Shown here in pieces: positions 1,280-64,000 of a stretch of DNA of 64,000 nucleotides (position 1 is the stretch's first letter; each line of letters begins with the position of its first letter). The stretch covers positions 11,306 through 75,305 of the forward strand of contig JAWBBK010000006.1 in assembly GCA_038824665.1 (NCBI GenBank). The letters are read 5' to 3'. The notes beneath the pieces are model-generated. The model had not been told where the DNA came from, did no database searches, and worked only from the letters and a program-made list of their open reading frames with translations. The translations under genes were made by a program, and so were the position numbers. The DNA comes from Acidilobaceae archaeon (GTDB taxonomy: Archaea; Thermoproteota; Thermoprotei_A; Sulfolobales; Acidilobaceae).

Positions 1280-1951
1280 TTAAAATTTATAGAAGCGAGA
1301 AACATTGATAAAAGCTCTCTCAACTACTCTAGCTCCTGCTGAAGAAATCCAAGTTCTGGCTATAGCCTCAGGAACCCCTAAAGCAACTAACAACCCTACT
1401 ATGTGATATGGGCTCCACATCTCCCACACATCTCTGCTATCGCTCGAAACGATCACCTCTAATCCAGATCTGAGAGCTCTCGTTATAGCTACATAAAGAT
1501 AATCAAGCTTGTTTTCAACTAATACAGGTCTAAGTACGAGCTCTACAGCTCCCCAGCCTCGTTGAGCAAAAAGACGAACTTGAGATCTGTCTATAAACCT
1601 CTCAGCTCCTGGCTCTACTCTCGTCAGAACAACCTCCTTACATGTGGCTGAGTATCTTAAGGCATCGAGATCTTTCGCGCTCACAGCTAAAAGGAAGAAG
1701 TCTTTTTTCAAAGACTTCTTCACCTGGTCTATCTTGACTCTTACCTCTTTTCTAGTTCTTCCCTCTACTGTGACTCTTAAACAGAGTCTCAACCCAAGGT
1801 CTTCGCTCAGCTTGGACACTATTCCGTAGTCTATGGAGTCACTTGCCTCTAAACAGACAAGCTTATAGCCTAAAGATCTAGCTAGTCTAAGCATCTCAAC
1901 AGCTGTCTCGGTATCTTTAGGTTTTAAACTGAGGTCTGCGAAGCTTTTTAT
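1280..1951 (-). CDS. rnp3: RNase P protein component 3 (Rpp30); true start probably non-canonical (ATA 1951 or ACG 1954), upstream of the ORF-track ATG at 1894
   Basis: PHP-like fold motifs KSFADLSLKP...ARSLGY and VSSDSRDVWEMWSP; lies in the conserved rpl15e / RNA-binding protein / rpp30 cluster. Confidence 0.8.
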   Translation of the reverse strand: MKSFADLSLKPKDTETAVEMLRLARSLGYKLVCLEASDSIDYGIVSKLSEDLGLRLCLRVTVEGRTRKEVRVKIDQVKKSLKKDFFLLAVSAKDLDALRYSATCKEVVLTRVEPGAERFIDRSQVRLFAQRGWGAVELVLRPVLVENKLDYLYVAITRALRSGLEVIVSSDSRDVWEMWSPYHIVGLLVALGVPEAIARTWISSAGARVVERAFINVSRFYKF

Positions 1952-2382
1952 CGTGAGAGCACCTCTTCGAGGAACTTAACTATCTCTCTCCTCTTACCTG
2001 CTATATGAAAAGAGACCTTGATCACATCATCGCCTTCGCTTAGCTCAAGTGAGCCTTTATAAGAACTTTGCTTGTCGATCCTGATGAAAAACGAACCGTT
2101 TTCATCTACGCGCTCGTCTAAGGTGGCTAAAAGTAGCCGTCTATCATGCTCTTTAAGTGAAGTTAGTATGTAAAGAAGAACTTCTGTAGAGAGCTGAGGA
2201 TCTCTTATCTCTATCGAAAGAACTTCTATTCTGTTTCCATAATGTCCTTCGTAAACTTCGCTTTTGACCTCTGTTGAGTTCCGAAGAGATGGAGGTAGAA
2301 CGTTTTTGAGAGCTTCTAGTACTTTTTCTCTGTCCTCGGTAGCGTGAACATGAGTTCTGAGCACGACTGAGGTGATAAACAT
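1948..2382 (-). CDS. Predicted RNA-binding protein of the exosome/RNase P neighbourhood (COG1325 type)
   Basis: HVHATEDREKV, EGHYGNRI, FFIRIDKQ and GDDVIKV motifs. Confidence 0.88.
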   Translation of the reverse strand: MFITSVVLRTHVHATEDREKVLEALKNVLPPSLRNSTEVKSEVYEGHYGNRIEVLSIEIRDPQLSTEVLLYILTSLKEHDRRLLLATLDERVDENGSFFIRIDKQSSYKGSLELSEGDDVIKVSFHIAGKRREIVKFLEEVLSR

Positions 2383-2415
2383 AGTCTAAAGCTCCCTATC
2401 TTTGCGGTCTCAACG

Positions 2416-3063
2416 CTACTTTTCGCTTGGCTTTATGAGTCTAGCTCCCCTACTTGCTTCGTGTCTCTTTCTGAGTTCTCTCTCTTTAGCTTTCTTCTTC
2501 CATTTATACTTATGAGTTCCTTTGAGTCCTCTCGACTTTAAAAGTCCTCTCATCTTCCTACCGGCACTAGTCAGACCTCTGAAAGGTCTGCCTTTATGTT
2601 TGCCTGAACAAACCCAGTTGAGCTCAGGATCGCTTTTAATAGCTGGACAGTGAGGATCTACCAGTATTACCTCATACCACTTGTATCTACCGTCCTCGCC
2701 AACGTAGTAGCTGTTGAGAACCACTAGGTTCCTGTACTTTGCTTGAGCTCTTTCTTCAGCTATTAGTCTTAAGCTTTTAGCTGGAGCAAATCCGTAGACG
2801 CCCAGCCTCTTAGGCCTTCTGCCTTTGTTGGGTCTAGCTTTTCTTCTGCCCCCCTTTCTAACTCGTACTCTGACGACTATCACGCCCTGTTTGTCTTTGT
2901 AGCCTAGCTCTCGAGCTCTACCAAGTCTTGTAGGCTTGTCTACTCTGACTACTACTGGCTCTTTCCTCCACTCTATAAGCCTTAATCTCATTATCTGTGC
3001 GTGCTCTCCCTCATAGGGCTTCTTCCACCACTCCTCCATATATTGGTACGCTGATTTGGCCAT
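2416..3063 (-). CDS. rpl15e: 50S ribosomal protein L15e
   Basis: [53 protein letters not shown]. Confidence 0.98.
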
Positions 3064-3114
3064 ATCCTTACACCACACCTTAGAGCAGTCCTACTCACAC
3101 TCTAGAATCTGACC

Positions 3115-4650
3115 TTAAATAGCGACTAAAACTCTTTGGGGGTCTCTGCTCATCAAAACGTCTAGGTAACCGTATAGCTCTCTTCGTAAAGCTTCGGGGT
3201 CTGTATAGTTATCTTCAATCAGTTTAGACCACGGAGGCTCTTCTGCGGGGTCCCAGTCTTCTAACGCTCTCGCAGACCGCTCTCTAAGAGATGTCAAAAG
3301 GTTTCTGTAACCGCCGCCTCGCAAAGCAACGTCTAGAAGGACCTCGGATGCAGATACGTCAGCTCTTCCAAGAGCTATTTGAAGTTCTGCATAGTCTAGA
3401 GGATAGACTTCTATTTCGAACCCCTGCTTCCTGAGTGATTTAGCAAGCGTCACAGCTTTCTCAGCTCTTCTCTTTTTGAAGCCAAACCATTGAAGTGGGG
3501 TTGAAGGTTTAGGTATGAAAGGATTCAGAGACACTCTGACCCTAGCGTTTAAAGGTTGGAGGACTTTCCTTATTTCAAGCATCATGTCTAGAGTCTCTTT
3601 TAAGTCTTCGGCGCTCTCTCCAGGAAACCCTGCCATTAGATAAACCTTGACCTGTCTGATACCAGCTGAAGCCAGAATCTCTGAGGCTCTGATAGCTCCC
3701 ATCTTTCCTGTAAGCTTCATGATAGCCCGAGCTATAGTAAAGCTCCCCGTCTCTGGAGCTATGGAGACAGTCTTCTGACCCCCTTCAACTAAGAGTTCTG
3801 CTCTCTTTTCTGTCAACGTCTCTGCTCTCAAGCTCGGAAGAGAGACCTCAAGACCTAGAGATACGGCATGTTCTAACAGAGTCTCTCCCCAAGGGCTATC
3901 GAAGAAAGACAAACTATACATAGAGACCTTGTTGACTTTATTATAAGAAGTTCCTAGCTCTAGGAGTTCTTTAAGCTTTTGGAGACTTCTGTCTCTTCTA
4001 GGCTTAAAAATACAACCCTCCATACAGAACCGACATCTTCTAAGACAACCTCTGCTAACCTCTAGAATGAAAGCTCTGCCCCATATAGGTTCAACGTCTT
4101 CTGAGACCTCCTGAACTATGGGGTACCATGACTTATCGAGGTCTTTTACGTAAACTCTCTTGACTTTATGCGAAGTGTAATCTGGAACGAGTACTCCTTC
4201 TATCTCAGATAGAGTTCTAAGACGAGAGTGTCGAGAAGGCTTAGATAAAGCGTTGACCAAATCTTCAGCTATCTCTTCAAACTCTCCTATTACAATTGCA
4301 TCGGCTATCTCCCATATGGGAAGAGGGTTGCCTATAACAGCTGGACCTCCTACTATCACTATCGGGTCTTCCTCAGACCTCACTCTTCTAGCAACAGGGA
4401 CCCTCATTTCATGAAGCATTTTGACTAAGTCTAGATACAGAAGTTCAAAGGGAAGGCTGGCTAATAAGGCTGTGTTTGATTTGGGACTCTCTCTATATCT
4501 AACTTTTTGTTTTACCTCACCACTCTCGAAAAAATACCTGCGTACCCCCACCTTGAGGTCTTCAAGAAGTCCTCCAATTAAGTGATATGCAAGACTTGAT
4601 AGCGCTACTCGCTCTTCGCTTGGATAAACGAGGCCTATCGTGACCAGCAG
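3115..4650 (-). CDS. Radical SAM protein with B12-binding-like N-domain (YgiQ/COG1032 type); start probably non-canonical CTG (4650 or 4647)
   Basis: EVSRGCLRRCRFC (CxxxCxxC), SLPSLRAE, SIAPETGS, YLMAGFPGE, NPFIPKPSTPLQW; the open frame upstream of GTG 4551 encodes IGLVYPSEERVALSSLAY. Confidence 0.85.
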   Translation of the reverse strand: MLVTIGLVYPSEERVALSSLAYHLIGGLLEDLKVGVRRYFFESGEVKQKVRYRESPKSNTALLASLPFELLYLDLVKMLHEMRVPVARRVRSEEDPIVIVGGPAVIGNPLPIWEIADAIVIGEFEEIAEDLVNALSKPSRHSRLRTLSEIEGVLVPDYTSHKVKRVYVKDLDKSWYPIVQEVSEDVEPIWGRAFILEVSRGCLRRCRFCMEGCIFKPRRDRSLQKLKELLELGTSYNKVNKVSMYSLSFFDSPWGETLLEHAVSLGLEVSLPSLRAETLTEKRAELLVEGGQKTVSIAPETGSFTIARAIMKLTGKMGAIRASEILASAGIRQVKVYLMAGFPGESAEDLKETLDMMLEIRKVLQPLNARVRVSLNPFIPKPSTPLQWFGFKKRRAEKAVTLAKSLRKQGFEIEVYPLDYAELQIALGRADVSASEVLLDVALRGGGYRNLLTSLRERSARALEDWDPAEEPPWSKLIEDNYTDPEALRRELYGYLDVLMSRDPQRVLVAI

Positions 4651-5873
4651 TTGAACACCTCGCCGCTATCCACATCTCTAAAGACGACACAGCCTGGATA
4701 TACGACTGCATATGACCCTATCTTGACTCCTGGCATTATAGAGACGTTTATCCCTATTTTAGCGTAGCCTCCAATCACTGAACCAAGCTTCTTGAGTCCC
4801 GTTTTTACTCTTACTCCCTTAACGGTCATCTCTACCGTCTGTTCGTTGAATCTCAAGTTGGCTATCTTAGACCCAGCTCCTAAGTTTACGTGCTCTCCGA
4901 TTACGCTGTCGCCAACGTAATTCATGTGAGGTAATCTAGCTCTTTCGAGCAATACTGAAGACTTGACCTGAGAGAAGGGACCTACAAAGGATTCTTCACA
5001 AACAACTGTATTTCCTCTTACATGGGCTAGAGGACCTATAACTGCTCCTCGGCCTATGTAGGCTGGTCCTTCAACAACAGTATAGGGTTTAATAGAACTG
5101 TTTGACTCTACCACTATAGGTCCTGAGAGTTCAGCTCTTTCGCTTACGTCTCCTTTAATCACCTGTCCCTTTATCTCAGAGAGAGCTATGATATTGGCCT
5201 TGAGAAAGTCCCATGGTCTTCCTATGTCTATCCAAGAACCTTTGGGTATCGGAAACGTCTTGACCTCATACTGTTTAGAAAGGTCATTTAGTGCGTCCGT
5301 AGCCTCAAACTCTCCTCTAGGAGACGGCTTGAGGTTCTTGAAGAAGCTTAGATGCTCATAGCTTATTTTTAGAATTCCTGCGAAAACTAAAGATGGGCCG
5401 GTGATGTTTTGAGGTTTTTCAGTAATGCTTTTAAGAAAACCTTCAGAATCTATCTCAACCACTCCGTAGTTTCCAGCTTCTTCCACTTCAGTTACAAAAA
5501 CGCTTGGTGTAGTCGCTCTGGCTATAAGCTCGTAGACCTCAGACTTAATAAAAACATCACCATATATCACTGTATAGTCGCCTGGACCACCTGTCTCTAT
5601 AGCTTTAGCTATGGCATCTCCTGTTCCTAACTCTCCTTTCTGATATACCAGCTCAACATCAACACCACATTTCTCAAGTTCCTTAATTACTAGGTCTGCT
5701 CCATAAGAGATTACGACAGCTATCTTATCATAACTACCTGTGGATGAAGCCTTCTTAATGTGTTTACATAACAACGACTCTCCAGCTACAGGAAGTACAA
5801 CTTTAGGTCTGGTATCGGTTAAAGGTTTCAGTCTCTCTCCTTTGCCAGCAGCTAGCAAAACCAAATGCTTCAC
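4635..5873 (-). CDS. glmU: Bifunctional sugar-1-phosphate nucleotidyltransferase/acetyltransferase (archaeal GlmU type)
   Basis: LAAGKGERLKPLTDTRPK, WIDIGRPWD, hexapeptide repeats, HMNYVGDSVIGEHVNLGAG. Confidence 0.88.
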   Translation of the reverse strand: MKHLVLLAAGKGERLKPLTDTRPKVVLPVAGESLLCKHIKKASSTGSYDKIAVVISYGADLVIKELEKCGVDVELVYQKGELGTGDAIAKAIETGGPGDYTVIYGDVFIKSEVYELIARATTPSVFVTEVEEAGNYGVVEIDSEGFLKSITEKPQNITGPSLVFAGILKISYEHLSFFKNLKPSPRGEFEATDALNDLSKQYEVKTFPIPKGSWIDIGRPWDFLKANIIALSEIKGQVIKGDVSERAELSGPIVVESNSSIKPYTVVEGPAYIGRGAVIGPLAHVRGNTVVCEESFVGPFSQVKSSVLLERARLPHMNYVGDSVIGEHVNLGAGSKIANLRFNEQTVEMTVKGVRVKTGLKKLGSVIGGYAKIGINVSIMPGVKIGSYAVVYPGCVVFRDVDSGEVFNCWSR

Positions 5874-6342
5874 TCTTCTTCCCCACTGTTTGACATCCGC
5901 TCAACCAAGATATAGAGTGTTTAACTTAAGAAGAAAAGAAGCTAAATAGAAAAGGTGTATAAATATAAAGGTCGGCTTCTCAGTAGCCGATAGCTCACAG
6001 ATCTTCACGTTTTAGAAGTCTAGCCTCTTAGCCATCTGTTTCTTGGCGATCTTCATGAACTCCTCATTATAGAAGCTTCTGACAACCGCCGGCTACTCAG
6101 CTTTCTGTGAAGTCTCGGAAAGTCAGAAAACAAATCAGCTATAGGAGGCTCTGAAGGTTAAAGGTCTTGAGCAGAACTTGGTGAGATGTGTCAAGATAGA
6201 AGAGTGTGAACGACTACAAAACACATAAGCAAACTGAATGTGTATCGAAAAGAGAAAACAGCTTCAAGGTCTAATGTTAGCTACTAATTAAAATGTGAAG
6301 TCCTTGATGTCTAGATCCTCAAAAAAGCCAAAAACTACCTAG

Positions 6343-6996
6343 CTACCTAGCTTCTTTTTTGAGTTGAACAGGAGACACGACAACGGCTCTAATGGGACCC
6401 TCAGGTCCGGGTACCCAGAGCAGTTTAGATTTGATTACCTCTACTTTTCTTAGAGGATATATCTTTCTTGCCTGAGCTTCTATTAGCTGAGCTAGGCTGT
6501 TTTCTTTATCACTGAATATCATCGCATTTATCAGCTCGTCTAACGCGTGCTCTTTGGCATAGCTTTCAACGACTTCTTTCATCCTCTTCCTTATCTCCCT
6601 CTTCTGACTGGTATTGCACCTGTATCGCGTCCACACAACACATGTAAGTCTTAAACCATAGCCATCTTTTGTCCAGACGTCAAATATTCCTACGACCTTT
6701 GAGGTCTTTCTTTTAGTAAGGCTTCTTACATAATCTCTTAGATGCTCGTGTCCTTTAAATCGGGTGTAAGCAGTGGTGCCGTCTACTTTGACGATCTGAA
6801 ACTTGAGCTTTATGTGAACATAAGTTATGTCGCCTGTGAGATCAAAGAGTGTCACCTCCATAGTCCTACCTATTAGCTTGTCTGGGTCGTCAGCTGGAGT
6901 AGTACCTAAAACAGTCTCTCCGAAGAGAGAAGGAGCTAACACAGTATACCACTTCTTAAGCTTCCACTTATCTCTTACTGAGACCCTTTTAGACAA
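6343..6996 (-). CDS. rps3ae: 30S ribosomal protein S3Ae
   Basis: RDKWKLKKWYTVLAP, LIGRTMEVTLFDLTGD, KIYPLRKVEVIKSK. Confidence 0.98.
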   Translation of the reverse strand: MSKRVSVRDKWKLKKWYTVLAPSLFGETVLGTTPADDPDKLIGRTMEVTLFDLTGDITYVHIKLKFQIVKVDGTTAYTRFKGHEHLRDYVRSLTKRKTSKVVGIFDVWTKDGYGLRLTCVVWTRYRCNTSQKREIRKRMKEVVESYAKEHALDELINAMIFSDKENSLAQLIEAQARKIYPLRKVEVIKSKLLWVPGPEGPIRAVVVSPVQLKKEAR

Positions 6997-7033
6997 CCCT
7001 CTACCCCTAAGCCCCCTCGGATTCAGGACTTAA

Positions 7034-7318
7034 TTAAGCTTTATTGCTTGAATCCTCTAAATACTTCAGCGCTTCTGTTGCACTCTTTAAAGACATGAGC
7101 ATATCGTCTAAAGTGTTTCTTAAGCTTAACATCCTCTGGGGCTCACAGTCTTCGATCTCGACACTACAAATAAGCTTAGCCTCTCTGGCTTCACACTTAA
7201 CTTTAAGCCAGGAGGGAGCTGAAACGTTATCAGGTTCAAGAGCTTTCTCAAGAGCTAATGCGTAAGCGCTCTCTACCTCTAGATGTGCTTCACATCGAGG
7301 GCTCTCTTCTCTATCCAA
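7034..7318 (-). CDS. pcc1: KEOPS complex subunit Pcc1
   Basis: ALEPDN and SLRNTLDDML motifs; conserved rps15-DHH-pcc1-rps3ae order. Confidence 0.85.
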   Translation of the reverse strand: MDREESPRCEAHLEVESAYALALEKALEPDNVSAPSWLKVKCEAREAKLICSVEIEDCEPQRMLSLRNTLDDMLMSLKSATEALKYLEDSSNKA

Positions 7319-8595
7319 ACCTTCTCACCGTCGAATTTAATTAAATTGGCTCTGTTGAGTTCATTCAAAGCCCCATAGCCCAAAGCTTCCTCTATCTGGA
7401 TTGGTGAAGCTAGAAACTCGTCACCTTCTTCGACTACAAGGATCGAATCGCTCTCTATAAAGCCATGGACTTTCAAAGCTCTCCAGAGGAGCGTCAAGGG
7501 TGCTCCAGGTTTAGCGCCTACAGAATAGACCTTGAAGCGTTGGGTGCTTCCGACCTTAGTTATCGAGCCTTCTGCAACTATGTTGGAAAGCACTTTAGCG
7601 CTAGATTCCAGTTGTGACTCAGCTAGAGGGATCTCTATCGAAAAGTCTAGCAGAGTAGCCACGACTCTCGCTAAGCTTCTTTCAGAGTCAGACGCGTAGA
7701 TCAGAGCATCACAGGCCTCTCGATAGTCTTGAATAGGAGCCTCTCTGCTCTTAGAGACCAACATGCCCGCTACCATGTCTTTAGCTGATATCTTTGATCT
7801 GAAGTTAAGATGCATAAAATTTATGACTTGTTTCGCCAAGTACTCTATCTCCTTAGCATCTGTAATGCTAGAAAGAGGTTTACCTGCAACGCTTCTGTAT
7901 TTTTCGATACCTAGAACCTCTTGACAACGCCAGGGATCACCAGCTAATCCCAGATAAAGAGGATAGGCAGTCGTGGATATGGCTTCACAAAACTCTAGCA
8001 CGTGAGGCTTGTATACCTTGATAGTGGTAACTATATCGAGCCCGGGCAGACTAGAGGAGAGCTTCTCGACGAGAACTCTGTCAAGACCTGACAGCTTGCC
8101 TACAGAGTCTACATAATTGCCAGCATGTATGCCTAAGAGAGTCATCGACGCTAAATCGATGCCTATGTTGTTCGTTCCTCCAGTGACTACTAGCGTCGCT
8201 ATAGCTACGTTGCTCCCCTGTCCTCCAACGAAAGTAGTTCCGTGAACGGGAATTGACTCTACAGAGCCAGACGCTATAGCGAGCATAGGACTAGTTACGT
8301 TAGATGGATGGTAGTCCACTCTGTTGTACCCCAAAAGGACCGTAGGCTCATCAATTATAGGAGGAGGGTTGAGAGAGACCTTGATAGATACTTCAGCACC
8401 AACTCGAAGAACTCTAGACGCTACTATGACTCCAGCTACGATAGGGTCTAAGTTTGGATACACCCTAATGACTAGTCTATCTCTCGAAGACGAAGCCTCG
8501 AGAATCTGATAAAACGCTCTATACGCTGCCTCAAGAGCTCTCTCAAGATCTCTAGCTGTTGGCAATAAAGCAAGTTTCAGCAAGAGGCGTCCCAA
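7279..8595 (-). CDS. Degenerate DHH/RecJ-like (Cdc45/GAN-related) protein
   Basis: Position between rps15 and pcc1; eroded motif I (YPNLDPIVAG); ISTTAYPLYLGLAGD segment typical of archaeal RecJ-like proteins; no DHH triad visible. Confidence 0.65.
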   Translation of the reverse strand: MGRLLLKLALLPTARDLERALEAAYRAFYQILEASSSRDRLVIRVYPNLDPIVAGVIVASRVLRVGAEVSIKVSLNPPPIIDEPTVLLGYNRVDYHPSNVTSPMLAIASGSVESIPVHGTTFVGGQGSNVAIATLVVTGGTNNIGIDLASMTLLGIHAGNYVDSVGKLSGLDRVLVEKLSSSLPGLDIVTTIKVYKPHVLEFCEAISTTAYPLYLGLAGDPWRCQEVLGIEKYRSVAGKPLSSITDAKEIEYLAKQVINFMHLNFRSKISAKDMVAGMLVSKSREAPIQDYREACDALIYASDSERSLARVVATLLDFSIEIPLAESQLESSAKVLSNIVAEGSITKVGSTQRFKVYSVGAKPGAPLTLLWRALKVHGFIESDSILVVEEGDEFLASPIQIEEALGYGALNELNRANLIKFDGEKVWIEKRALDVKHI

Positions 8596-8673
8596 CTACT
8601 CTAGAGATCCAGGAGACTAAAAACGTCCCGACCCTCAAGATAGCGTAGAGGTTTTGAAAAGTAACATTATAGA

Positions 8674-9135
8674 TTAAAGACCTGCGCCAGCGACTAGGAG
8701 TTCTGCTTTCTGTGGGTCATAGCTCCAATCTGCTGGAAGCTTTCCCACTCGCTTGTAATATTTCACCAGCCTGTGTATCTTAGACTCTATATCGATGAGC
8801 CCTCTCTTGGCGTGAGTGTCCTTAGGATGTTCTTGTAGATGTCTTCTTAAATTAACTGCTTTCTTTATGAGATAAAATAGGTCTTCGGGAACCTTAGGAG
8901 CTAAACCCTTCTCTTCTAAGATTTCAGTTATGGACTTGCCCAGTATGGGCTTTACCAAGGGAACGCCGAACTGATCTCTCAATATCAATCCTATCATGCT
9001 AGGACCATATCCTTTTTTAGCCAGCTCTTCTATGACCAGCTCTATCTCTTCAGGAGTATAAGTCAGCCACGTCGGCGGCGTAGGTCTTGCTGGTCTCATA
9101 GAGCCAGAGCTTCCCTTCTTCTTTCGTTTATTCAT
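8674..9135 (-). CDS. rps15: 30S ribosomal protein S15 (S13e family)
   Basis: [45 protein letters not shown]. Confidence 0.98.
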
Positions 9136-9222
9136 CTTCTGTCTCCCTAGCTTCGCTCTAAGAGTTAGCTTATAAACATTATTTTAGCCTAGCTCCCTTC
9201 AAAAAGCCAAAGGGCTAGAAGC

Positions 9223-10338
9223 TTGGACATAGAGACGAGAATGAAGACGATAGTTAGAAACGCTGTCGAAATAGTCACGCTAGAAGAGCTGAGGTCTAAG
9301 CTAGAAAGCGGAGAGAAGCTCAAAGGATATATAGGCTATGAGCCTAGCGGTCTTGTTCATGTGGGTTGGCTAGTCTGGTTCTTCAAGGTCTGGGACTTGG
9401 TAGAGGCTGGAGTAGACTTTACAGTGCTAGAAGCCACATGGCATGCCTTCATAAACGACAAGCTCGGAGGAGATATGGACCTGATAAGAAAGGCTAGCAG
9501 ACTCACGCGCGAAGTTATGGAAGCTCTTGGGATCCCTGTAGACAAGATCAGGTTCGTAGATGCAGAAGAGCTAACCTCTGACCCGAACTACTGGGCTTTA
9601 GTTCTCGAGGTTATGAAAAACAACAGTCTAGCTAGGATTAAACGAAGCTTAACTATTATGGGTAGAAGAGTTGAAGAGGCTGAACTTGACGCCTCTAAGC
9701 TAGTTTATCCAGCTATGCAAGTCTCCGATATATATTATTTAGACTTAGACATAGCTTTAGGAGGAATGGATCAAAGAAAAGCACATATGCTAGCTAGAGA
9801 CACTGCTGAGAAGAAGAGACTTCAAGAGTTCTACGAACGTATTAGAGGCAAGAAGTTGAAGAAGCCTATAGCTATACATACACCTATAATAACGAGTCTT
9901 CAAGGACCTGGTTCAAGAATGGACGTATCTGAAACTGAGATAGACGAGATCTATTCAAGCGTTAAGATGAGTAAGTCGAAGCCCGACTCCGCGATCTTCG
10001 TTCATGACTCACCGGAAGCCATAGTTGAAAAGCTGAGAAAAGCCTACTGTCCTCCCAGACAGCTAGAATACAACCCAGTGATTGAGATAGCCAGTCACGT
10101 TCTAGGCGCACGAGGTCAACTAACGCTTAGGATAGAAAGACCTTCTAAATATGGAGGACCTTTAGAGATAACTAGCGTAGAGGAGCTGAAAGATGTCTAC
10201 TCGAGAGGTGAAATACATCCGCTAGATCTTAAGAACGCTGTATCTGAAGCTCTCATCAAGCTTCTCGAACCAGCTAGAAAGCTCCTAAAAAGCAGAGAGG
10301 ACTTAATCAGAGAAGTTGAGAGTCGCGTAACTAGATGA
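9223..10338 (+). CDS. tyrS: Tyrosine-tRNA ligase
   Basis: YIGYEPSGLVHVGW (HIGH), YPAMQVSD, GGMDQRKAHMLARD, KMSKS. Confidence 0.97.
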   Translation: MDIETRMKTIVRNAVEIVTLEELRSKLESGEKLKGYIGYEPSGLVHVGWLVWFFKVWDLVEAGVDFTVLEATWHAFINDKLGGDMDLIRKASRLTREVMEALGIPVDKIRFVDAEELTSDPNYWALVLEVMKNNSLARIKRSLTIMGRRVEEAELDASKLVYPAMQVSDIYYLDLDIALGGMDQRKAHMLARDTAEKKRLQEFYERIRGKKLKKPIAIHTPIITSLQGPGSRMDVSETEIDEIYSSVKMSKSKPDSAIFVHDSPEAIVEKLRKAYCPPRQLEYNPVIEIASHVLGARGQLTLRIERPSKYGGPLEITSVEELKDVYSRGEIHPLDLKNAVSEALIKLLEPARKLLKSREDLIREVESRVTR

Positions 10339-10384
10339 GTTCTGGAAGCGGTTTCTAAAACATATCCTCCTTAGGTGTAACGTT

Positions 10385-11536
10385 GTGAGATTCTCTGAGA
10401 TATATAGAGAGATCTCTCCCATTGCTTTAGTGCTCTTCATAAATGAAGTAGCGACAGCAACTTACTTCTTTAGCTCAAGAGCTTTCATACGAGTTCTCAT
10501 GGGTGAAGATGTCTACAGATACGTGATCCTTCTTATAAGCTTTGAGAGCATCGCTAACCTTTTTGCTCTTTTAGGAGGAGTTCTAGGAGATCTTTACGGT
10601 CGTAGAATCATAGCGTTGCTTTCAGGTCTCAGAGCTCTCACATACTTCTCTATACCTTTAGCTATTACGTATGACCTAAAGCTAACTTTCGCTTTATTTT
10701 TTGTGAGCAAAGTCTTTGATGGATTGTTCTTCTCAAATGCGTTGGGAACTCTTCTATCCAGGTCTAAAGGTTCAGGAAGACTTTATGCTACGTCTTCTAC
10801 AATCTTTCCTATTGCTTGGAGCATCGGGTCTCTGGTTCCAGGACTCTTAGAACCTCGAGGAGGTTATACTCTCATCTTTACTTTCATAGGGGTCGCTACC
10901 TTATTCGCATCGTTGTTTTTAGCTGTAGTAGGTAAAGAGAGCAAGAGAGCCAAACACGAAGACCTTGTTAAAGCCTTCTCTATGTTGCCTAGGACTTTCT
11001 TAATGGGCGTTATTATAGCAGAAGCTGGATTAGTGCTTTATTGGAACCTCCTCTCAATAAAACTTTACGAAACTACAGGAAGTTTGCTTCTCTTCGGTCT
11101 CATAGGAGGCACATTGACCACTATGGCTTCTGTCTTGGTTTATCCTCTAGCTGGAATCATAGTCGATAAGATCCATCCGTCGAGATTCTTAGGAGTAGTA
11201 TACATCGCTTACCTGACCTATGGATTAATGATGTACTTTTTCAGCGGTCTTCTATTCGCGATCTTGTGGGTCCTGCCCCTCTATCCCTTCAAAGTCGTAG
11301 CGTTGACTGTGACTCTTAGCAGAACTCTTCCAAAGACATTTCAGAACACAGCCGCTGGCATCACATCTCTAATCTACGGTCTCTCTGGCCTCATTTATTC
11401 TTTGTTTTATTTTGTTGACCTTGACCTTTTTGAAGTGCTTTCTTTATATGTATTTGCGCTGACTATTGGAGCCTTAGCAATTATAAAGGCTAACTTTAGA
11501 ATGTTGTCACCTAAAGCTGAAGAGACTAGCTACTAG
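10385..11536 (+). CDS. MFS transporter
   Basis: About 12 hydrophobic segments; motif A GVLGDLYGRR and repeat GIIVDKI. Confidence 0.85.
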   Translation: MRFSEIYREISPIALVLFINEVATATYFFSSRAFIRVLMGEDVYRYVILLISFESIANLFALLGGVLGDLYGRRIIALLSGLRALTYFSIPLAITYDLKLTFALFFVSKVFDGLFFSNALGTLLSRSKGSGRLYATSSTIFPIAWSIGSLVPGLLEPRGGYTLIFTFIGVATLFASLFLAVVGKESKRAKHEDLVKAFSMLPRTFLMGVIIAEAGLVLYWNLLSIKLYETTGSLLLFGLIGGTLTTMASVLVYPLAGIIVDKIHPSRFLGVVYIAYLTYGLMMYFFSGLLFAILWVLPLYPFKVVALTVTLSRTLPKTFQNTAAGITSLIYGLSGLIYSLFYFVDLDLFEVLSLYVFALTIGALAIIKANFRMLSPKAEETSY

Positions 11537-12644
11537 AAGTTAGTCTTCTATATTTTTCTTCAGCATCACGCACAAGGTCTTCATTAGAAAGTCCACCATA
11601 CCTAGACAGCTCGTAGTCTAATGTCAGGTCTCTAAAAGCCTGAGCTTTCTCTCTTAAGTCTTTCTCTGTGATCAATAAAAACTCTCTATGTGTCATGCTG
11701 TCTTCCATAATCCTATTTGTCCTCTTTTCTACAAAGTCTACAGCTTTCCAGTAAAGCCCCATCACCCCGCCCTGTTTAGACGCAATCGACTTCCAAGATC
11801 GTTCGATTCTCTGTGTCTCCAACGTTGTCACACCGCTTAACAATACTTTCAAAAGCGGATAGCTGAAGACCAACAGAGCGCTAGCAAAAAGAAGAGGTGC
11901 AATAACGCCAAGAGAGGGAAGTTGAGTCAACATATCGAAACTGATACCGGCTTGAGGTAGTTGTGGACTCGGTAGACCCAACGGTTTTTCTGAAGTGTCG
12001 ACTAGACTCCAGTTTTCCGTAGCGGTGAGAGAGTTATACAAGAGTTCTTTCGCCATCTGTACGAGCGTTTTGGCTTGCTCTGACGAGATTTCATTAAGTA
12101 GAGAGCTGTATCCAGCGTTCTCTGCGTATCTTTTAAGAACCTCTAGCACGAGCTGATAGTCAGTGATCTTAAGTTTATCCTCATAAAAGGATTGACGAGC
12201 TTGTTCTAAAAGGTTCTTTAGCTTTAAGATATCGAGAACACCTTCAAAATTGATCTCTTTTAAGATCTCAGCCCACTCTTTATTCTCTATAGAGTTTATA
12301 AGGTCTTCAATAGAAGCCTCAGATAAATGTGAATAGCTTAGATTGTATTGCGCTAAAAGCTCTTCTAAAGCTATTCTAGCCTTGGGGTCTTCAGCTAGGC
12401 ACTCTACGGAGCTACAGTTTTCATGAACAAGCTCTAGGAATCTCTTTAAGTCCTCTTCGCTCCAACCTTTCCCTTGATTTTGTAAAATATCATTAAGATA
12501 ATAGAGTAGAGCCTCTAAGTAGTTTATCTTTTGAGGAAAACCGAGAGTGTGTAGCTTCGTAGCTATCAGACCTTCTTCACTAGCCAAGACTACTTGAGCT
12601 AAAAAAGCAATAGTTATGATGATTATAATTATGAGTTTTCTCAT
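11526..12644 (-). CDS. Signal-peptide/membrane protein with C-terminal DUF4129-like domain
   Basis: N-terminal signal MRKLIIIIIITIAFLAQVVLA, one internal TM, C-terminal SMTHREF...LTLDYELSRYG. Confidence 0.75.
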   Translation of the reverse strand: MRKLIIIIIITIAFLAQVVLASEEGLIATKLHTLGFPQKINYLEALLYYLNDILQNQGKGWSEEDLKRFLELVHENCSSVECLAEDPKARIALEELLAQYNLSYSHLSEASIEDLINSIENKEWAEILKEINFEGVLDILKLKNLLEQARQSFYEDKLKITDYQLVLEVLKRYAENAGYSSLLNEISSEQAKTLVQMAKELLYNSLTATENWSLVDTSEKPLGLPSPQLPQAGISFDMLTQLPSLGVIAPLLFASALLVFSYPLLKVLLSGVTTLETQRIERSWKSIASKQGGVMGLYWKAVDFVEKRTNRIMEDSMTHREFLLITEKDLREKAQAFRDLTLDYELSRYGGLSNEDLVRDAEEKYRRLTSSS

Positions 12645-13762
12645 GGAACTGCACCTATTACTTTCAAGATTCCTTCAATTAATCTAAAGAAGAAAGAATA
12701 GTCGTCTATAACTTTTCTCAGAACATCGTTCAGCCTCGATAGCTCCAAAAAACCTGAGCTAGGGTCCCAATATCCTATAAAGTATGCAACTACATAAAAC
12801 GATAGGATCAAAGCGAGTCCCGCTAACACCATAAAGAGAGAAGGCTCTTCGTTCCAGCTCATTTTTAATATCTGAGAAGTTAAAAGCCAGAACAAAGAGA
12901 AGGTAGCGTATGCAATTACCATCGATACTAAGAACTGAGAGAAAGGACTCAACTCTAAGGTCTGCACTTTTTCAAACAAGAGCTTGTTAAACAGGAGATA
13001 GAATGGAGGAGTCAAAAGTAAAGCCGCCATAGCGCTTCTCAGCGAAGCTAGAGGGGGTCTTAGTTGTACTTCTTCGCCTGACTTTTCCAAGAACAACAAG
13101 GAGAGCATCCTCGAAGGTTTGATGAAAAGAGCTAAAACCTCTATCACTCTGAACGTTGCAATATATGTAAGGACTAAGAAAACGCTTATAGTGATCAACC
13201 TGAAAAGAGGATTAATCGATGCAAACTCAATTAGTGGAGTCAGAGACGGCTCAGCTATCGACTCTGTCGCTCTCTCTAGAACGAGAGTCGCTCTCCATAA
13301 AAATGTACCCAGAAGTATCGATAAACATATGAACACTAAAACAAGCATAACAAACGAAACTATGAAAGAAACCTGTTTATGTATTTTTAAAGATTTGTAA
13401 AAACCAGGTCTCCAAGAGGTCTCAAGAGAACTAAAGATGCTAATAATCGGTAAAGGAGCTATTGTTATCAAAGACAAATCGAGGTCAGAAGCTACAGTGA
13501 GAACAACAGAAAAGGCGTGTAGCAGAGGATTTAGAAAAGCCAAAGCCAGAAGTACAAGAGTCAGAGAAACTAATGGGATCGTCTTGATTACAACATTAAA
13601 AAGTAATCCCACATCGTTATTTAAAACTGCATTGTAGACCTCATTGAAAACAGTAAGAGAAGGAGCTTCGGATACGAGTTTTAGTAAGAAGTCTATTGAA
13701 ATGATTGTTGCAGCTAGTCTGAAGAATATTTTGAGCTTTAAGTCAGCTGCCACTCTAGACAC
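12641..13762 (-). CDS. Polytopic membrane protein of the MoxR operon, function unknown
   Basis: Many hydrophobic helices; overlaps both neighbouring genes. Confidence 0.7.
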   Translation of the reverse strand: MSRVAADLKLKIFFRLAATIISIDFLLKLVSEAPSLTVFNEVYNAVLNNDVGLLFNVVIKTIPLVSLTLVLLALAFLNPLLHAFSVVLTVASDLDLSLITIAPLPIISIFSSLETSWRPGFYKSLKIHKQVSFIVSFVMLVLVFICLSILLGTFLWRATLVLERATESIAEPSLTPLIEFASINPLFRLITISVFLVLTYIATFRVIEVLALFIKPSRMLSLLFLEKSGEEVQLRPPLASLRSAMAALLLTPPFYLLFNKLLFEKVQTLELSPFSQFLVSMVIAYATFSLFWLLTSQILKMSWNEEPSLFMVLAGLALILSFYVVAYFIGYWDPSSGFLELSRLNDVLRKVIDDYSFFFRLIEGILKVIGAVP

Positions 13763-15104
13763 CTCTTTGTGCTTCTAACTTCATTAAGATCTTTGTGGCC
13801 ATGTCTCGAGGCGTTACTACGACCGCTCTAAACCCTCTTTTTCTGAGGTCCTTCGTTTTAGAGAACGCTTCCCGTATCTCCTGGTAGGTTCTCACTCTAT
13901 AGACTGCTCTTTCGAACTCCGATAGCTCTTCTACGCCATACAGATGAGGAAGAAATACAAAAAAGTTTAGAGAGACCCCCCGAATGTTAGATAGACCTTT
14001 GAGAGCTTCTGCTGCTACGTCTGCTATTCTTGCTGTAGTCACTACTATAACGTTAACCTTATCTCTGGGTAGGATTTTCGACAACCTCTTCTCTAAAGCA
14101 AAAAGTCGCGAACGGAGCTGTTCTGAAGATTCTCGAATCTTGAAGTCTTGAAAGTCTATTTCAGAGAGCAACCGCATTAGTTCAACAAAGCCTTTTCTCC
14201 CAGGATAGAAGTTTGAAACCATTTCTCTTTTGGGAGTAGATACGGCTAAGGCAATATTGTCGTTATTGTTAGCCAGATGTCTGACTATAGAGCCCAACAC
14301 ACGCATCGAGTGTTCGAGAGGGGTATTGAGATATGGGCCGTAGATCATGTCTTCACATGTTATAAGCACGAAGAGAGCATACAGACTTGACTCTCTTTCA
14401 TATTCTTTTACTATAAGTTTTCCTTTAGTCAGAGCGTGCCAAAGGATCCTTCTAAGTTCATCTCCTGGAGAATAGTTTCTTACAGAATAAAACTCAACAC
14501 CTTCTCCAGGACGTCTAGTTCTGGTCAGACCTGTACTTCTTGAAGTAGAGAGAACGACTTTTGAGATCTTTTGTTCAATGCGAGGAGTTATCTTAATGAC
14601 TATGGGGTCTCCGAGAGTTATTTCAGAACTTCTAAAGAATCCGAACGGATCTCTATAAGTTGCTCTCAAAGGACCTAAGACGTGTGAGCCGGGCCTGCTC
14701 TCGAATTCTGCTTTGTACTCAAAACATCCTCTCGGCGAGATCACGGACAACCCTCCAGGAGCCCCTTTTATAGATAAATGTTCTGGATATGAAAGCGAGA
14801 ACTCGACTAAGGCTATAGGTAAGAGTGAACCGTTACACACTAAATAGTTTAATCGTAAAGGTTTTCCTTCTTCGCTTCCCTCGGCTCTAACAGAAACTTT
14901 ACAACTAGCAAGCATTAAAGCAGCGATAAGACTGTAAGCTCTTAGGACTAAAACAAAGACTACTATCGAAAAGCCCACCCACCCTAAAGACGATATTTTA
15001 AAGACATCAAGCACTATAAAGTATGAGGCTATAATCAAAGGCGCTAACACTCTGTTAGTAGAGAAGACTACAGCCTCGTTACTGCTCGGTAGAGTTGTGT
15101 TCAT
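13755..15104 (-). CDS. DUF58 domain protein (MoxR partner, vWA-like)
   Basis: DPFGFF and GEGVEFYSVRNYSPGDELRRILW...KLIVKEYERE; two N-terminal TM helices. Confidence 0.88.
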   Translation of the reverse strand: MNTTLPSSNEAVVFSTNRVLAPLIIASYFIVLDVFKISSLGWVGFSIVVFVLVLRAYSLIAALMLASCKVSVRAEGSEEGKPLRLNYLVCNGSLLPIALVEFSLSYPEHLSIKGAPGGLSVISPRGCFEYKAEFESRPGSHVLGPLRATYRDPFGFFRSSEITLGDPIVIKITPRIEQKISKVVLSTSRSTGLTRTRRPGEGVEFYSVRNYSPGDELRRILWHALTKGKLIVKEYERESSLYALFVLITCEDMIYGPYLNTPLEHSMRVLGSIVRHLANNNDNIALAVSTPKREMVSNFYPGRKGFVELMRLLSEIDFQDFKIRESSEQLRSRLFALEKRLSKILPRDKVNVIVVTTARIADVAAEALKGLSNIRGVSLNFFVFLPHLYGVEELSEFERAVYRVRTYQEIREAFSKTKDLRKRGFRAVVVTPRDMATKILMKLEAQRGV

Positions 15105-16471
15105 AGACGTCTCTCCTCTAAGCCTTCAAGCTTCTTTAACGACGTTCCGAGAACTTTGAGAACTTCTTCACTTTGGGCGAGCGCCTTCTTAACAATTCTT
15201 CCCCAAAGTACTACGGGTGGCCAAAACCTCCTGCCCCTTGCTCTATCGTAGTATCTATTCATGAACTCCCAATAGCTTTTAGCGTAGTTTCTCTCTACTC
15301 CATGGGATTCGAGAACAGAAATAGCCTCTAGAGATGTCAGAGACGTTCCAGTAACGGATTTTAAAACAGAATCCACTATTGTATAGAGCTGAATAAAATC
15401 CTCTTTGTCCAAGCTTTTCTCTCGTATTGTCTTCCTAAACACTTCATAACCGTACCACTTGACCTCTCTAACGTCTTTAAGTGGCTCGTCTCTGACCTTC
15501 TCTTCGTAGAGAGCTAAGATTAGCGCAAACCCTAACGACAAGCCTACTAGAAAGAGAGTTCTCATGAAATCCAAGCTGAATAGCGTAACAATAACTCTAT
15601 CTATAAAGTTTAAAAGAGGTGGAAGCCATGTTGATGGATGTAAAACTATCGAGATCAGAGATATCATCAAGTTGAGTGGATCAAACAACTGAATCATTTC
15701 TAAGAAACTTTCGTCTTCTTGAGCCAAGGCAGACAAAATGCTTAACGGATTTACCTGCTGATATTTTGATGCCTCTAAAAGCACTATGCAATCTCTTTCA
15801 CAAAGGCCCTCTACTGTTGCTCTAGCAAAGCCGATATACACATCAGAATGATTAGACCTAAAAACCTGATTAAGGAATATCGAGCCGTCTCCTATCACGA
15901 AAGCTGAAACCCTTCCTTTATCCTCATATGCATAGAACGTATCATTCTCTATCTTAGAAAATACCTTTGAGGGATTGTCGAGAATTAACGTTCCTTTCCA
16001 GCCCCAAGGAGTCTCGATGTAAACAGGTACGTGATCCTGGATTATGGATCCCTCAATTCTGACCGCTAGTCCGAAAGTCTCAAGTACCGCATTAGTGTTT
16101 CCCGTTTCATCAGCTATGAGAAGAGCCAGTTTTTGACATCTATCGAAAAACTTCCTTACGTGAAACAATTCGCTTTCGCTGTAGCTTAGCTCAGGAGACA
16201 CTATTACTATCAGAACTTTATCGCATTTATCCACGATGTCTGCGATCATTTTCCAATCATATACGAGAAAGACTTGACGATCTTCAGACAACAATTTATA
16301 GAAATCACTAAGACCTAAAGGACCTTCGTTTAGAGGATGAGCACCTGGAGCTAAAGGAAGTATATAGGGTCCTTTCTCAAGTAATGCTATTAGGGTTATG
16401 AGTAGGAGAGCTAAAAGTAGCTTTGTGGAAAGAAGAGAAAAAGTTGGAAGTGCTATTTTATCTTTACTCGT
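15101..16471 (-). CDS. DUF4350-like membrane-anchored protein; start probably non-canonical (ACG 16471 or ATA 16456)
   Basis: Open frame upstream of TTG 16294 encodes TM LLSTKLLLALLLITLIALL and HPLNEGPLGLSDF; internal LLIADETGNTN and IGDGSIFLNQ. Confidence 0.72.
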   Translation of the reverse strand, partial: TSKDKIALPTFSLLSTKLLLALLLITLIALLEKGPYILPLAPGAHPLNEGPLGLSDFYKLLSEDRQVFLVYDWKMIADIVDKCDKVLIVIVSPELSYSESELFHVRKFFDRCQKLALLIADETGNTNAVLETFGLAVRIEGSIIQDHVPVYIETPWGWKGTLILDNPSKVFSKIENDTFYAYEDKGRVSAFVIGDGSIFLNQVFRSNHSDVYIGFARATVEGLCERDCIVLLEASKYQQVNPLSILSALAQEDESFLEMIQLFDPLNLMISLISIVLHPSTWLPPLLNFIDRVIVTLFSLDFMRTLFLVGLSLGFALILALYEEKVRDEPLKDVREVKWYGYEVFRKTIREKSLDKEDFIQLYTIVDSVLKSVTGTSLTSLEAISVLESHGVERNYAKSYWEFMNRYYDRARGRRFWPPVVLWGRIVKKALAQSEEVLKVLGTSLKKLEGLEERRL

Positions 16472-16754
16472 AGTCCCACCTCAACTCTTGGTCTTCTTCT
16501 TTTCCTCCATCTTCACTCTTCAAAGAAGCTCCATAGATGTATGCTGAAAGCCTCAAGACATAAAGCGCTCCTGAAAACAGAGTGAAACCTGTTATTGCAG
16601 AAAGTAAAGAAGTCGCTACGTATCCTCGCTCCATGTAGCTCAAAGACCAGAGTAAAAATATAAGTGAGACAACGAGAAGAGCTAGCCCCAAACCCAGGTA
16701 TATGGCCCATCTGAGCGATTCTCTCCTGAATTCGCGCACGATCACCGCCCTCAC
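16464..16754 (-). CDS. Small two-TM membrane protein of the MoxR operon
   Basis: Two hydrophobic helices; overlaps the moxR stop. Confidence 0.7.
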   Translation of the reverse strand: MRAVIVREFRRESLRWAIYLGLGLALLVVSLIFLLWSLSYMERGYVATSLLSAITGFTLFSGALYVLRLSAYIYGASLKSEDGGKEEDQELRWDYE

Positions 16755-40713: not shown

Positions 40714-41809
40714 CTAGGACGTCTCTGGCTCTTCAGTTGAACTCTTAGCTGACCGACTTCTTTTCCACATCCTGGGATAAATGCCAGGCTCTAATACCAC
40801 TCTCTCAGGCTCTACCGCTATTCCACGCTCTAGTGATAACATAGCTTCGGCGCTCATAACGGCTCTTCCTAAAGCCACAAGCTCTCCTTTGAGAGTCAAG
40901 AGAGCTACGATATCTCCTCTTCTCACCCTATCGCTAACCATCGCTATTCCGGGCACAGCGAGCCTCGCTCCGTTAACTATGCTCTCTACAGCAGAATCTC
41001 TCAACACGACCTTAGGGAGCGAACACACTAAGTACTCTGCTGGATAAACAACTTTTCTAATAGCGTCTTCCCTATTTTCGGTCTTCCAGAGGTAAACGGC
41101 TTCAGAGAGGTCTTGAAGCTTTACGAGACCTAAGTCCTCTTTAATGGGTCCTGTTCTAGTTCTCCTGAGTTCTCTCATATGTGCGCCTACGCCTAACACT
41201 AAGCCTATGTCCCAACAGAGCTTCCTTATGTACGTTCCGGGGTCCGAAGTTACTCTGAAGACTACATACTTGCCTCTCTTCTCTAAGACCTCTAGCTCGT
41301 AGATCGTCTTAACTCTTATAGCTCTCTTAACGCTACTTCTTAAAGGCGGTCTCTGATATATCCTGCCTCGAAACTCGTTAAAGGCCTTTTTCAGCTCGTC
41401 TTCGCTAACGTCTTCATGAAGTTGCATAACGCAAACGTACTCCTTTGATGAGTGCATGAGAAGTCCTATTATCTTCGTGGCTCTCTCTAGAGCTATTGGT
41501 AATACTCCAGTGACCTTGGGGTGTCCCCGCTCCTTCCAGGAGCTCTAGGGTCCCCCCATGACCTGCCTTCTTCACGCCTAGCAATCTCTTAATCCAAGCC
41601 ACGACCTCATGACTAGTTGGACCCGGAGGTTTGTCTAGAGGTATCATTCCATACTCTATGTACTTGTTTATAGGTCTTTGTGTTGGAAGCCATCCAAATC
41701 TTTCATCAGTCTGCTCTTCTATCTTGACTTCTAACTTCTCTTCAAAACCGCAAGTCTTCGAAAGACTCTTTATGAACTCTAGGCCCGCCTTCGTTAGATC
41801 CATATCCAC
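40714..41809 (-). CDS. cbf5: H/ACA pseudouridine synthase Cbf5, two exons (41809-41545 and 41522-40714)
   Basis: [11 protein letters not shown]...GHGGTL then, after removing 22 nt, DPKVTGVLP; [22 protein letters not shown] domain; spliced length 1074 nt is in frame. Confidence 0.96.
41523..41544 (-). other. 22-nt bulge-helix-bulge pre-mRNA intron in cbf5
   Basis: CCCU AG|A GCUCCU gga AGGAGC GGGG AC|A CCCC; excision restores the catalytic Asp codon G+AC. Confidence 0.93.
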
Positions 41810-41872
41810 CCCTCTAAATCGCTATCTGTAGCAACAATTAGGGTTCAAAACCGTAAAGATCGAGATGAAGGT

Positions 41873-61239: not shown

Positions 61240-64000
<2,761 letters not shown>

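Follow-up and report, generated by a model that had tools for sequence, protein, structure and literature searches.

Near-cognate codons behind Shine-Dalgarno motifs as likely translation starts of three operon genes in an Acidilobaceae archaeon

The window analyzed here is a stretch of 64,000 nucleotides (nt) from an Acidilobaceae archaeon (GenBank assembly GCA_038824665.1). It corresponds to G000:C6:11306-75305, where G000 denotes the window's own genome (1.10 Mb in 10 contigs, 83% complete, G+C content 43%), and the metagenome runs that hold its DNA carry the source label hot springs. Three genes of the window, encoding the RNase P subunit p30 (Rpp30), a radical-SAM protein and a DUF4350-like membrane protein, each follow an upstream gene closely at a junction (J1, J2 and J3, respectively), and none of them has an ATG, GTG or TTG where its protein family would have it begin. 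We examined which codons are likely to start these genes, using as the main comparison G001, the complete genome of a sister species in the same genus.

Gene layout and start candidates at three junctions

All three genes lie on the - strand. The row that holds J1 and J2 consists of a nucleotidyl transferase with hexapeptide repeats (4635..5873, by Pfam), the radical-SAM protein, ribosomal protein L15e, a PF01877 RNA-binding protein (1948..2382, Pfam E 6.5e-38) and Rpp30, so that the first and fourth of these are the upstream genes of J2 and J1. The row around J3 reads MoxR ATPase, a small membrane protein without Pfam match (16464..16754, its 3' end differing among strains), the DUF4350-like protein, DUF58, a protein without assignment and a DUF4129-like protein.

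Each junction carries the same perfect Shine-Dalgarno (SD) motif. At J1, GAGGTG (1960..1965) falls within the last codons of the PF01877 gene and is followed by ctctc, ACG (1952..1954, 5 nt after GGTG) and ATA (1949..1951, 8 nt after GGTG), the ATA overlapping the upstream stop TAA (1950-1948) as ATAA, a -4 overlap. At J2, GAGGTG (4656..4661) lies within the 3' end of the nucleotidyl transferase gene and precedes ttcaa, a pair of CTG codons (4645..4650; the first at 4650-4648 and the second at 4647-4645, 5 and 8 nt after GGTG), GTC, ACG (4641-4639) and ATA (4638-4636), with the upstream stop TAG at 4637-4635. At J3, GAGGTG (16477..16482), likewise in the closing codons of its upstream gene, is followed by ggact, ACG (16469..16471, again at 5 nt and the sole near-cognate codon behind this SD) and the upstream stop TAA (16466-16464); an ATA further on (16454..16456) stands 20 nt after the SD and has no SD of its own, its longest SD run being only 3. 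Relative to the upstream stop, the candidate starts thus sit at -4 (J1), at -13 or -16 (J2) and, in the window, at -8 (J3).

A stop closes each of the three frames upstream (open frames 1280..1975, 3115..4665 and 15101..16480), and the frames begin with 27, 38 and 62 codons free of ATG, GTG and TTG, respectively. The first canonical starts are ATG 1892..1894 (residue 28 of the open frame), GTG 4549..4551 (residue 39; GCG in one strain) and TTG 16292..16294 (residue 63), and no ATG, GTG or TTG is found in any frame 0-12 nt past the three SDs. Re-drawn from the candidates favored below, the coding sequences span 1280..1951 for Rpp30 (from ATA, 223 amino acids (aa)), 3115..4650 for the radical-SAM protein (Radical_SAM_N2 plus Radical_SAM, 511 or 510 aa) and 15101..16471 for the DUF4350-like protein (from ACG, 456 aa). 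The arrangement described in an initial annotation of this DNA, namely GAGGTG followed after 5 nt by an in-frame ACG, CTG or ACG, an in-frame ACG just ahead of each upstream stop, and three genes without a canonical start before their conserved N-termini, is therefore borne out by the window sequence.

The annotation had also proposed that these frames hold conserved N-terminal extensions, and both Pfam and orthologue alignments show conservation upstream of the first canonical starts. Rpp30 matches PF01876 (E 1.8e-13, 50.9 bits against a gathering cut-off of 35), residues 18-211 covering profile positions 6-212. The Pfam model begins at residue 18 of the open frame, and ATG 1894, at residue 28, lies past the conserved F-x-D-L-S motif; an N-terminal F/Y-x-D-L/M-S/x motif is present in 29 of the 29 orthologous Rpp30 loci recovered. 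A sequence search of PDB with the re-drawn Rpp30 returned no match at E up to 0.01, and the family-typical N-terminus of this protein rests on Pfam and the orthologues. The radical-SAM protein exceeds the gathering score for both PF19864 (74.3 bits, cut-off 29) and PF04055 (61.8 bits, cut-off 29.5). Its orthologues in other genera start at GTG, ATG or TTG 2-5 residues before an [IV]G[IL]xYP block, and in the window this block lies 28 residues upstream of GTG 4551. For the DUF4350-like protein the match to PF14258 (20.8 bits, under the 30.4 cut-off) is a resemblance only; its orthologues share an N-terminal hydrophobic (membrane) helix and an LEKGP..GAHPLN block, both of which a start at TTG 16294 would delete. 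The first canonical starts lie inside conserved N-termini at all three genes, in line with the earlier expectation that standard gene callers truncate them.

Comparison of the orthologous junctions, a check the initial annotation had proposed, showed the J1 and J2 states either kept or replaced by a canonical codon at the same position in relatives. At J1 the SD is the same in G001 and in G007. G001 reads GAGGTGctctcgagATAG, with GAG in place of ACG and with ATA retained at 8 nt, overlapping the stop, while the G007 sequence is GAGGTGcttagaggATT, where ATT stands at 8 nt without overlapping a stop in that frame. In G023 and G013 the Rpp30 gene is preceded by GGTGATacacaACG, in which ACG stands 7 nt after GGTGAT. 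None of these four genomes has a canonical start ahead of the Rpp30 motif. Across the 29 loci, five Rpp30 genes have a near-cognate codon behind an SD (G000, G001, G007, G023 and G013), 23 have a canonical start, and one (G006) is ambiguous. Because G001 has lost the ACG but still has ATA at 8 nt, and ATT occupies the 8-nt position in G007, the alignment points to ATA as the most likely start of Rpp30 in the window. The ACG at 5 nt, which had been put forward as the J1 start, is less likely: GAG replaces it in G001, and a 5-nt spacing is rare among canonical starts (11 of 236).

At J2 the SD is conserved in G001, which retains GAGGTGctcaaCTGCTG with both CTG codons; ATA is changed to GTA there. 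Two other genera (G004 and G021) read CAA GTG where the window has CAA CTG, at the first CTG, and for this reason CTG is most likely the radical-SAM start; of the pair, spacing points to the second codon (8 nt) and homology to the first (5 nt). At J3, ACG is most likely the start of the DUF4350-like gene on sequence grounds. In the G001 orthologue an ATG precedes the aligned position by two codons, and the protein begins MKADRRKAR, against (M)SKDKIA in the window, a comparable basic stretch. ACG is not a start codon in NCBI table 11. An ACG 5 nt after GAGGTG is thus not what the junctions have in common, given GAG in G001 at J1 and GTG in G004 and G021 at J2. Beside these loci, a radical-SAM orthologue in another family (G038, locus L056) lacks canonical starts throughout its first 36 codons, and its second codon is ATA behind GGGGGT.

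Fidelity of the sequence was checked on Logan contigs that span J1-J3 from four metagenome runs of three studies. At J1 and J2 there was not one differing letter in the contigs of the four runs, and at J3 the SD and ACG were unaltered in all four; the complete genome G001 has the same non-canonical state at J1 and J2. Variation was seen close by. An A-to-G change at 4550 in run X3 turns GTG 4551 into GCG, and 16508 is C>T in four of four runs. Just upstream of J3, position 16494 is deleted in three of the four runs and is T>A in the fourth. With this 1-nt deletion the small upstream open reading frame (ORF) stops at TGA 16483-16481, within TTGAGGTG and in frame with the DUF4350-like gene, so that the J3 ACG lies 9 nt past the stop. 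Since the upstream stop is shifted in three of four assemblies, the 'ACG AGT AA' overlap at J3 is strain-specific, and the earlier suggestion of an ACG placed before the upstream stop at this junction does not hold as a general feature.

Two further observations came from the same contigs. For L15e the longest canonical ORF runs from GTG 3078 (-); the family-typical MAKSAYQY.. begins at ATG 3063 and a 5-nt deletion occurs at 3070 in three of four assemblies, and because of both the true start is probably ATG 3063. At 9745-9884, within a + strand gene (9223..10338), contigs of depth 10-57 (the organism itself having about 4-10) match over only about 65 nt, after which they either diverge or lack 48 nt and have 12 other letters in their place; they look like copies of a conserved stretch of this gene from other organisms and not like a variant of G000.

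Recurrence in two genomes and beyond

To place the three genes in a wider setting, the species pair G000/G001 was compared genome-wide. Stop-to-stop ORFs of at least 60 aa were paired with those of the G001 contig (1,159,524 nt) by best BLASTP match, the best score being kept among overlapping ORFs, which gave 1138 pairs. After removal of pairs with at least 90% identity, with 100 bits or less, or with no upstream stop, 1043 (G000) and 1047 (G001) remained. A margin of 5 residues for alignment beyond the first canonical start flagged 193 of the 1138 pairs, mostly conserved untranslated or overlapping-gene sequence, and was rejected; the margin finally used placed the first canonical start at least 8 codons inside the conserved alignment and was combined with an SD test.

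By this measure the first canonical start in G000 lies at least 8 codons inside the conserved region in 115 of 1043 pairs. In those 115 genes an SD run of at least 5 stands 5-10 nt before an in-frame CTG, ATT, ATC, ATA or ACG in 15 of 90 instances, as against 45 of 1017 for other in-frame codons (odds ratio 4.3, p 3.7e-5) and 1 of 131 for the same triplets out of frame (p 7e-6). The corresponding counts in G001 are 12/83, 45/1192 and 4/140. AAG and AGG were excluded from the near-cognate set, being purine-rich like the SD itself and showing no clear excess (AAG 5/40, AGG 2/30).

A second scan did without orthology and took strong SD 6-mers followed at 5-9 nt by an ORF of at least 100 codons, with an in-frame stop no more than 40 codons upstream and no canonical start nearby. 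It returned 92 canonical and 51 other sites in G000. Sixteen of the 51 carry one of the five near-cognates (CTG 5, ACG 5, ATA 3, ATC 2, ATT 1), where their codon share is 8.1% (binomial p 1.6e-6), and the spacing of these sixteen peaks at 7 nt (9/16). In G001 the scan gave 11 near-cognates among 67 sites (p 0.004). The genome-wide search for SDs followed by near-cognate codons that the initial annotation had suggested thus yields an excess over chance in both genomes. Canonical SD-led starts in G000 (n = 236; ATG 91, TTG 78, GTG 67) lie 5 nt after GGTG in 11 cases, 6 nt in 70, 7 nt in 60, 8 nt in 31 and 9 nt in 24; the peak at 6-7 nt agrees well with the 6-8 nt noted from the window.

When the search window was extended to 12 codons past the onset of conservation, 20 high-confidence near-cognate starts were obtained in G000 (CTG 7, ACG 6, ATT 3, ATA 3, ATC 1), J1, J2 and J3 among them. 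The list includes LeuRS, HisG, an ABC ATPase, an aminotransferase, an aldo-keto reductase, a flavin reductase and MnhE. The recurrence noted at three genes accordingly extends well beyond them, to about 16-20 of 1043 genes.

Start codons were also exchanged between the two species at positions that align exactly, with an SD 6-7 nt ahead in each case. CTG in G000 corresponds to TTG in G001 in two genes (the ABC ATPase and a 78-aa protein), and ACG in G000 to GTG in the flavin reductase and to CTG in the aldo-keto reductase. MnhE has ATA (as ATAA) in G000 and ATG (as ATGA) in G001, a single G-to-A difference that alters start codon and upstream stop alike. In the opposite direction, TTG in G000 corresponds to CTG in G001 in two genes and to ACG in two others; one of the former is a 94-aa gene of the window (7034..7318, - strand), with TTG behind GGTGAG and, in the G001 orthologue, CTG at the same position behind GGTGAT. 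The same near-cognate is found in both species for ATT (twice, LeuRS and HisG), ATC (once, a protein of 189 aa that matches no Pfam family at E up to 1e-4), CTG (three times) and ACG (once). CTG, ACG and ATA are transition neighbors of TTG, ATG and ATG, respectively, a pattern that would fit drift under weak constraint.

HisG has a perfect 10-nt SD, a 7-nt spacing and ATT, and is then free of canonical starts for 85 codons; since HisG starts canonically in all other genera checked, its predicted ATT start is specific to the genus. LeuRS, on the other hand, has no canonical start in G007 or in G025, a member of another family, and both show ATT behind an SD. On these comparisons, predicted near-cognate starting is a property of the lineage and is not peculiar to J1-J3.

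Proposed initiation mechanism and its rivals

Taken together, the conserved N-termini, the orthologous junctions and the genome-wide counts make it likely that Rpp30, the radical-SAM protein and the DUF4350-like protein are translated from SD-anchored near-cognate starts, AUA, CUG and ACG, respectively. Near-cognate initiation behind an SD had been the earlier reading too, and it remains the best one given the orthologues and the genome-wide enrichment. On the polycistronic mRNA, a 5-10 nt match between the SD and the 3' end of 16S rRNA (GGAGGTGATC-type) would anchor the 30S pre-initiation complex and thereby put the P site some 7 nt (5-10 nt) further downstream. Two of the three codon bases would then pair with the anticodon CAU of the ordinary initiator Met-tRNA, the mismatch being offset by the strong SD, and the protein would still start with Met. 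Such 'local scanning' around an SD-placed P site (the term is taken from PMC6237735) would accept a single mismatch, probably at an initiation efficiency below that of AUG, GUG or UUG. Such starts may also tune stoichiometry, and within the genus the start codon of SD-led genes would drift between ATG/GTG/TTG and CTG/ACG/ATT/ATA/ATC.

Loss of aIF1 or an odd initiator tRNA was considered as the cause and rejected. aIF1 is present with a normal score (79.5 bits; 72-91 bits in relatives), and the initiator tRNA is of the usual kind (anticodon CAT, A1:U72 pair, anticodon stem rich in G:C).

Several points weigh against this interpretation. We infer from the letters of the DNA both the codon actually used and the N-terminal residue: at J2 the candidates are the first CTG, the second CTG or ACG, and at J3 they are ACG or ATA 16456, the ACG being at the uncommon 5-nt spacing. 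G000 and G001 belong to one genus and are not independent. With a background of 4.4% for non-start codons, some 3-4 of the 15-16 matches may be due to chance. Within the list of 20, the NuoL-like gene is weak, as GTG directly follows its ATA; the KH and S24e genes are weak, with canonical starts 6-9 codons on that are still upstream of the Pfam domain, and so is PALP, with a canonical start 8 codons on. As about four of the 20 are weak in this way, the safe count is 16 of 1043 genes, or about 8% relative to the 219 canonical SD-led starts under the same SD criterion. Near-cognate initiation does not explain every case, since LeuA-like and PriL-like conserved genes have no start-like codon of any kind. 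Finally, aIF1 of S. solfataricus rejects AUU in vitro (PMC4705826).

The strongest rival is termination-reinitiation, in which near-cognates would be usable only because ribosomes ending the upstream gene re-initiate on the spot, so that geometry and not the SD permits the start. J1, J2 and J3 all overlap or abut the upstream gene, and the three high-confidence ATA starts, including J1 and MnhE (both ATAA, the latter ATGA in G001), are all -4 overlaps, the classic geometry of translational coupling and re-initiation seen in ATGA and GTGA (PMC10666635). Against this, 11 of 20 near-cognate starts lie at -60..+30 nt from an upstream same-strand stop, compared with 116 of 219 canonical SD-led starts, these distances being upper bounds and the gene set being limited to genes with a G001 orthologue. 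For at least five high-confidence genes the closest upstream stop on the list is over 100 nt away (173 nt for HisG and 105 nt for the aldo-keto reductase, the others being the genes at C1:192608, C1:32204 and C1:83711), the J2 CTGs lie 8-13 nt upstream of the stop, and the J3 stop moves between strains while SD and ACG stay constant. Because the near-cognate starts resemble canonical SD-led ones in spacing and are not more frequent at junctions, the common factor of the predicted near-cognate starts is the SD and not the junction. The special tie to termination-reinitiation proposed earlier is not upheld, and we regard this rival as improbable.

Much less probable still is C-to-U editing, which would turn ACG and CTG starts into AUG and UUG in the mRNA, as with plant-organelle ACG starts. 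The 13 of 20 high-confidence starts that are CTG or ACG could in principle become canonical by one C-to-U change. The remaining seven (ATA, ATT and ATC, J1 included) are irreparable by C-to-U, and ordinary T-to-C transitions of TTG and ATG yield the same codon spectrum. No mRNA editing is known from archaea, which also counts against this explanation.

We attach an equally low probability to the view that the proteins are frameshift or stop read-through fusions with the upstream protein, or that truncated products from the first canonical start are the real ones. With respect to the upstream gene the frame is shifted by -1 at J1 and J2 and by +1 at J3, and in three of four assemblies the upstream ORF at J3 is in frame and parted from the DUF4350-like gene by TGA alone. 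However, the overlaps at J1, J2 and J3 contain neither an X_XXY_YYZ slippery heptamer nor a homopolymer run of at least 5, which speaks against frameshifting, and most genera have separate genes with canonical starts at the homologous N-terminus, so that the frameshift-made fusions once suggested find no support. Truncation would remove N-terminal segments that are covered by Pfam or conserved, and GTG 4551 is GCG in one strain. An error of sequencing or assembly at the start codons, for which a 10-contig, 83% complete assembly might speak, is effectively refuted and thus excluded by identical letters in the contigs of four runs from three studies and by the non-canonical state in the complete G001 and in other genera.

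Other features, known systems and wider meaning

Four further loci deserve mention in their own right. A 332-aa conserved protein at G000:C1:355956-356951 (+; L231 457..1455), whose N-terminus (K/R)DTPFLSDPE is kept in G001, begins right after an in-frame TGA, 17 nt behind GGAGGTGA, the TGA-ending motif being the end of the upstream gene as well. Neither G000 nor G001 has a canonical or near-cognate codon there, and canonical starts first occur at codons 57 and 26. An isopropylmalate/homocitrate-synthase-like gene (..VLDTTLRDGEQ..) at G000:C5:54477-56006 (-; L230 78..1607) is free of canonical starts for 52 codons in G000 and 42 in G001, and G001 lacks a near-cognate codon ahead of the motif. 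Its leader is conserved in both species (..GTGCGTGGTGGTyTAG AAA TCC.., with an in-frame GTG GTG just before TAG); this may be a conserved leader element or a case of read-through.

A break at about 41522-41543 (-) of the window divides the pseudouridine synthase gene cbf5 into open frames 41414..41821 and 40714..41544. About 22 nt lie between 'AGHGGTL' and the next 17-residue segment, with the frame shifted and an in-frame stop inside. The insert folds into a GCUCC/GGAGC hairpin with G/C helices on either side (minimum free energy -28.6 kcal/mol, z -1.9), and the same break occurs in G001; the insert would fit the bulge-helix-bulge pre-mRNA intron known for crenarchaeal cbf5. At 60001-64000 the G+C content is 0.60, against about 0.43 elsewhere, and ORF pairs are 88-98% identical to G001; on both counts this segment fits an rRNA operon.

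Eukaryotic near-cognate initiation follows a hierarchy of CUG, ACG, AUU and others and is under the control of eIF1/eIF2. The predicted starts described here resemble it in that the factors are homologous (eIF1/eIF2, with aIF1 present here) and the spectrum is led by CUG and ACG, then AUH. They differ in that an SD at fixed distance would set the start, with no scanning, and in that the near-cognate would be the sole start of the main protein and not of an upstream ORF or an isoform.

Among prokaryotes, rare starts are on record in bacteria, namely AUU in infC and, in Deinococcus, ATC in dnaA and CTG in rpsL (PMC2830850). In those cases, and by prediction here, a conserved housekeeping gene has no start other than the near-cognate, which is conserved among relatives and was recognized because a canonical start would shorten a conserved N-terminus. 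The present system, by comparison, is archaeal, with aIF1/aIF2 instead of IF3; it involves a predicted 16-20 of 1043 genes instead of a handful, includes ACG, and shows free swapping between near-cognate and canonical codons in sister species. Archaea use AUG, GUG and UUG according to reviews (PMC4705826). The starts of Aeropyrum pernix are 52% TTG, 28% ATG and 20% GTG (Yamazaki 2006, as quoted in PMC5911459). A. pernix shares SD-led genes, membership of the hyperthermophilic crenarchaea and relaxed reading of the first base; only ATG, GTG and TTG are reported there in the passage quoted, whereas the predicted starts here include mismatches at the second base (ACG) and the third base (ATA, ATT, ATC) as well as CTG. 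Ribosome profiling in Haloferax volcanii placed about 30% of putative alternative initiation sites at near-cognates, which the authors set aside (PMC7261190). That archaeon is thus alike in having near-cognate initiation sites, but the sites described there are alternative ones, while those proposed here are the main starts of conserved genes and come from comparative genomics alone. With the -4 overlap coupling of PMC10666635, J1 and MnhE share a 4-nt start/stop overlap; compared with the overlaps described there, the stop here is TAA or TAG, which is possible only with an ATA start, and most near-cognate starts here do not overlap at all.

A literature search that covered few subscription journals found no report of genome-wide or routine CUG, ACG or AUH main starts in Thermoproteota. 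Near-cognate initiation itself is known; what is new is its predicted use at many genes of an archaeon, ACG included. Whether the whole lineage follows a relaxed, eukaryote-like start rule seems to us evenly balanced. Under such a rule CUG and ACG, and less often AUU, AUA and AUC, would be the sole start of about 8-15% of SD-led genes (no less than 1.5% of all genes, LeuRS, HisG and Rpp30 among them) in this genus and, by Rpp30 and LeuRS, in several genera and at least two families of the order; start codons would drift near-neutrally, ACG would be a regular start outside table 11, and annotations would be systematically truncated at such genes.

For annotation, callers limited to ATG, GTG and TTG would lose 19-62 codons at the three genes described here, with a dozen or more others affected, LeuRS and HisG included, and callers that use table 11 would still miss ACG. 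For start selection, archaea have eukaryote-type aIF1/aIF2 and yet are regarded as accepting AUG, GUG and UUG only (PMC4705826). The swaps between canonical and near-cognate codons at identical positions suggest that behind a strong SD the choice of start codon is under weak constraint or serves to tune expression. A lineage with routine CUG, ACG and AUH main starts would be a natural test bed for the balance between SD strength and codon-anticodon fidelity, as well as for the question of whether the near-cognate hierarchy of eukaryotes predates scanning.

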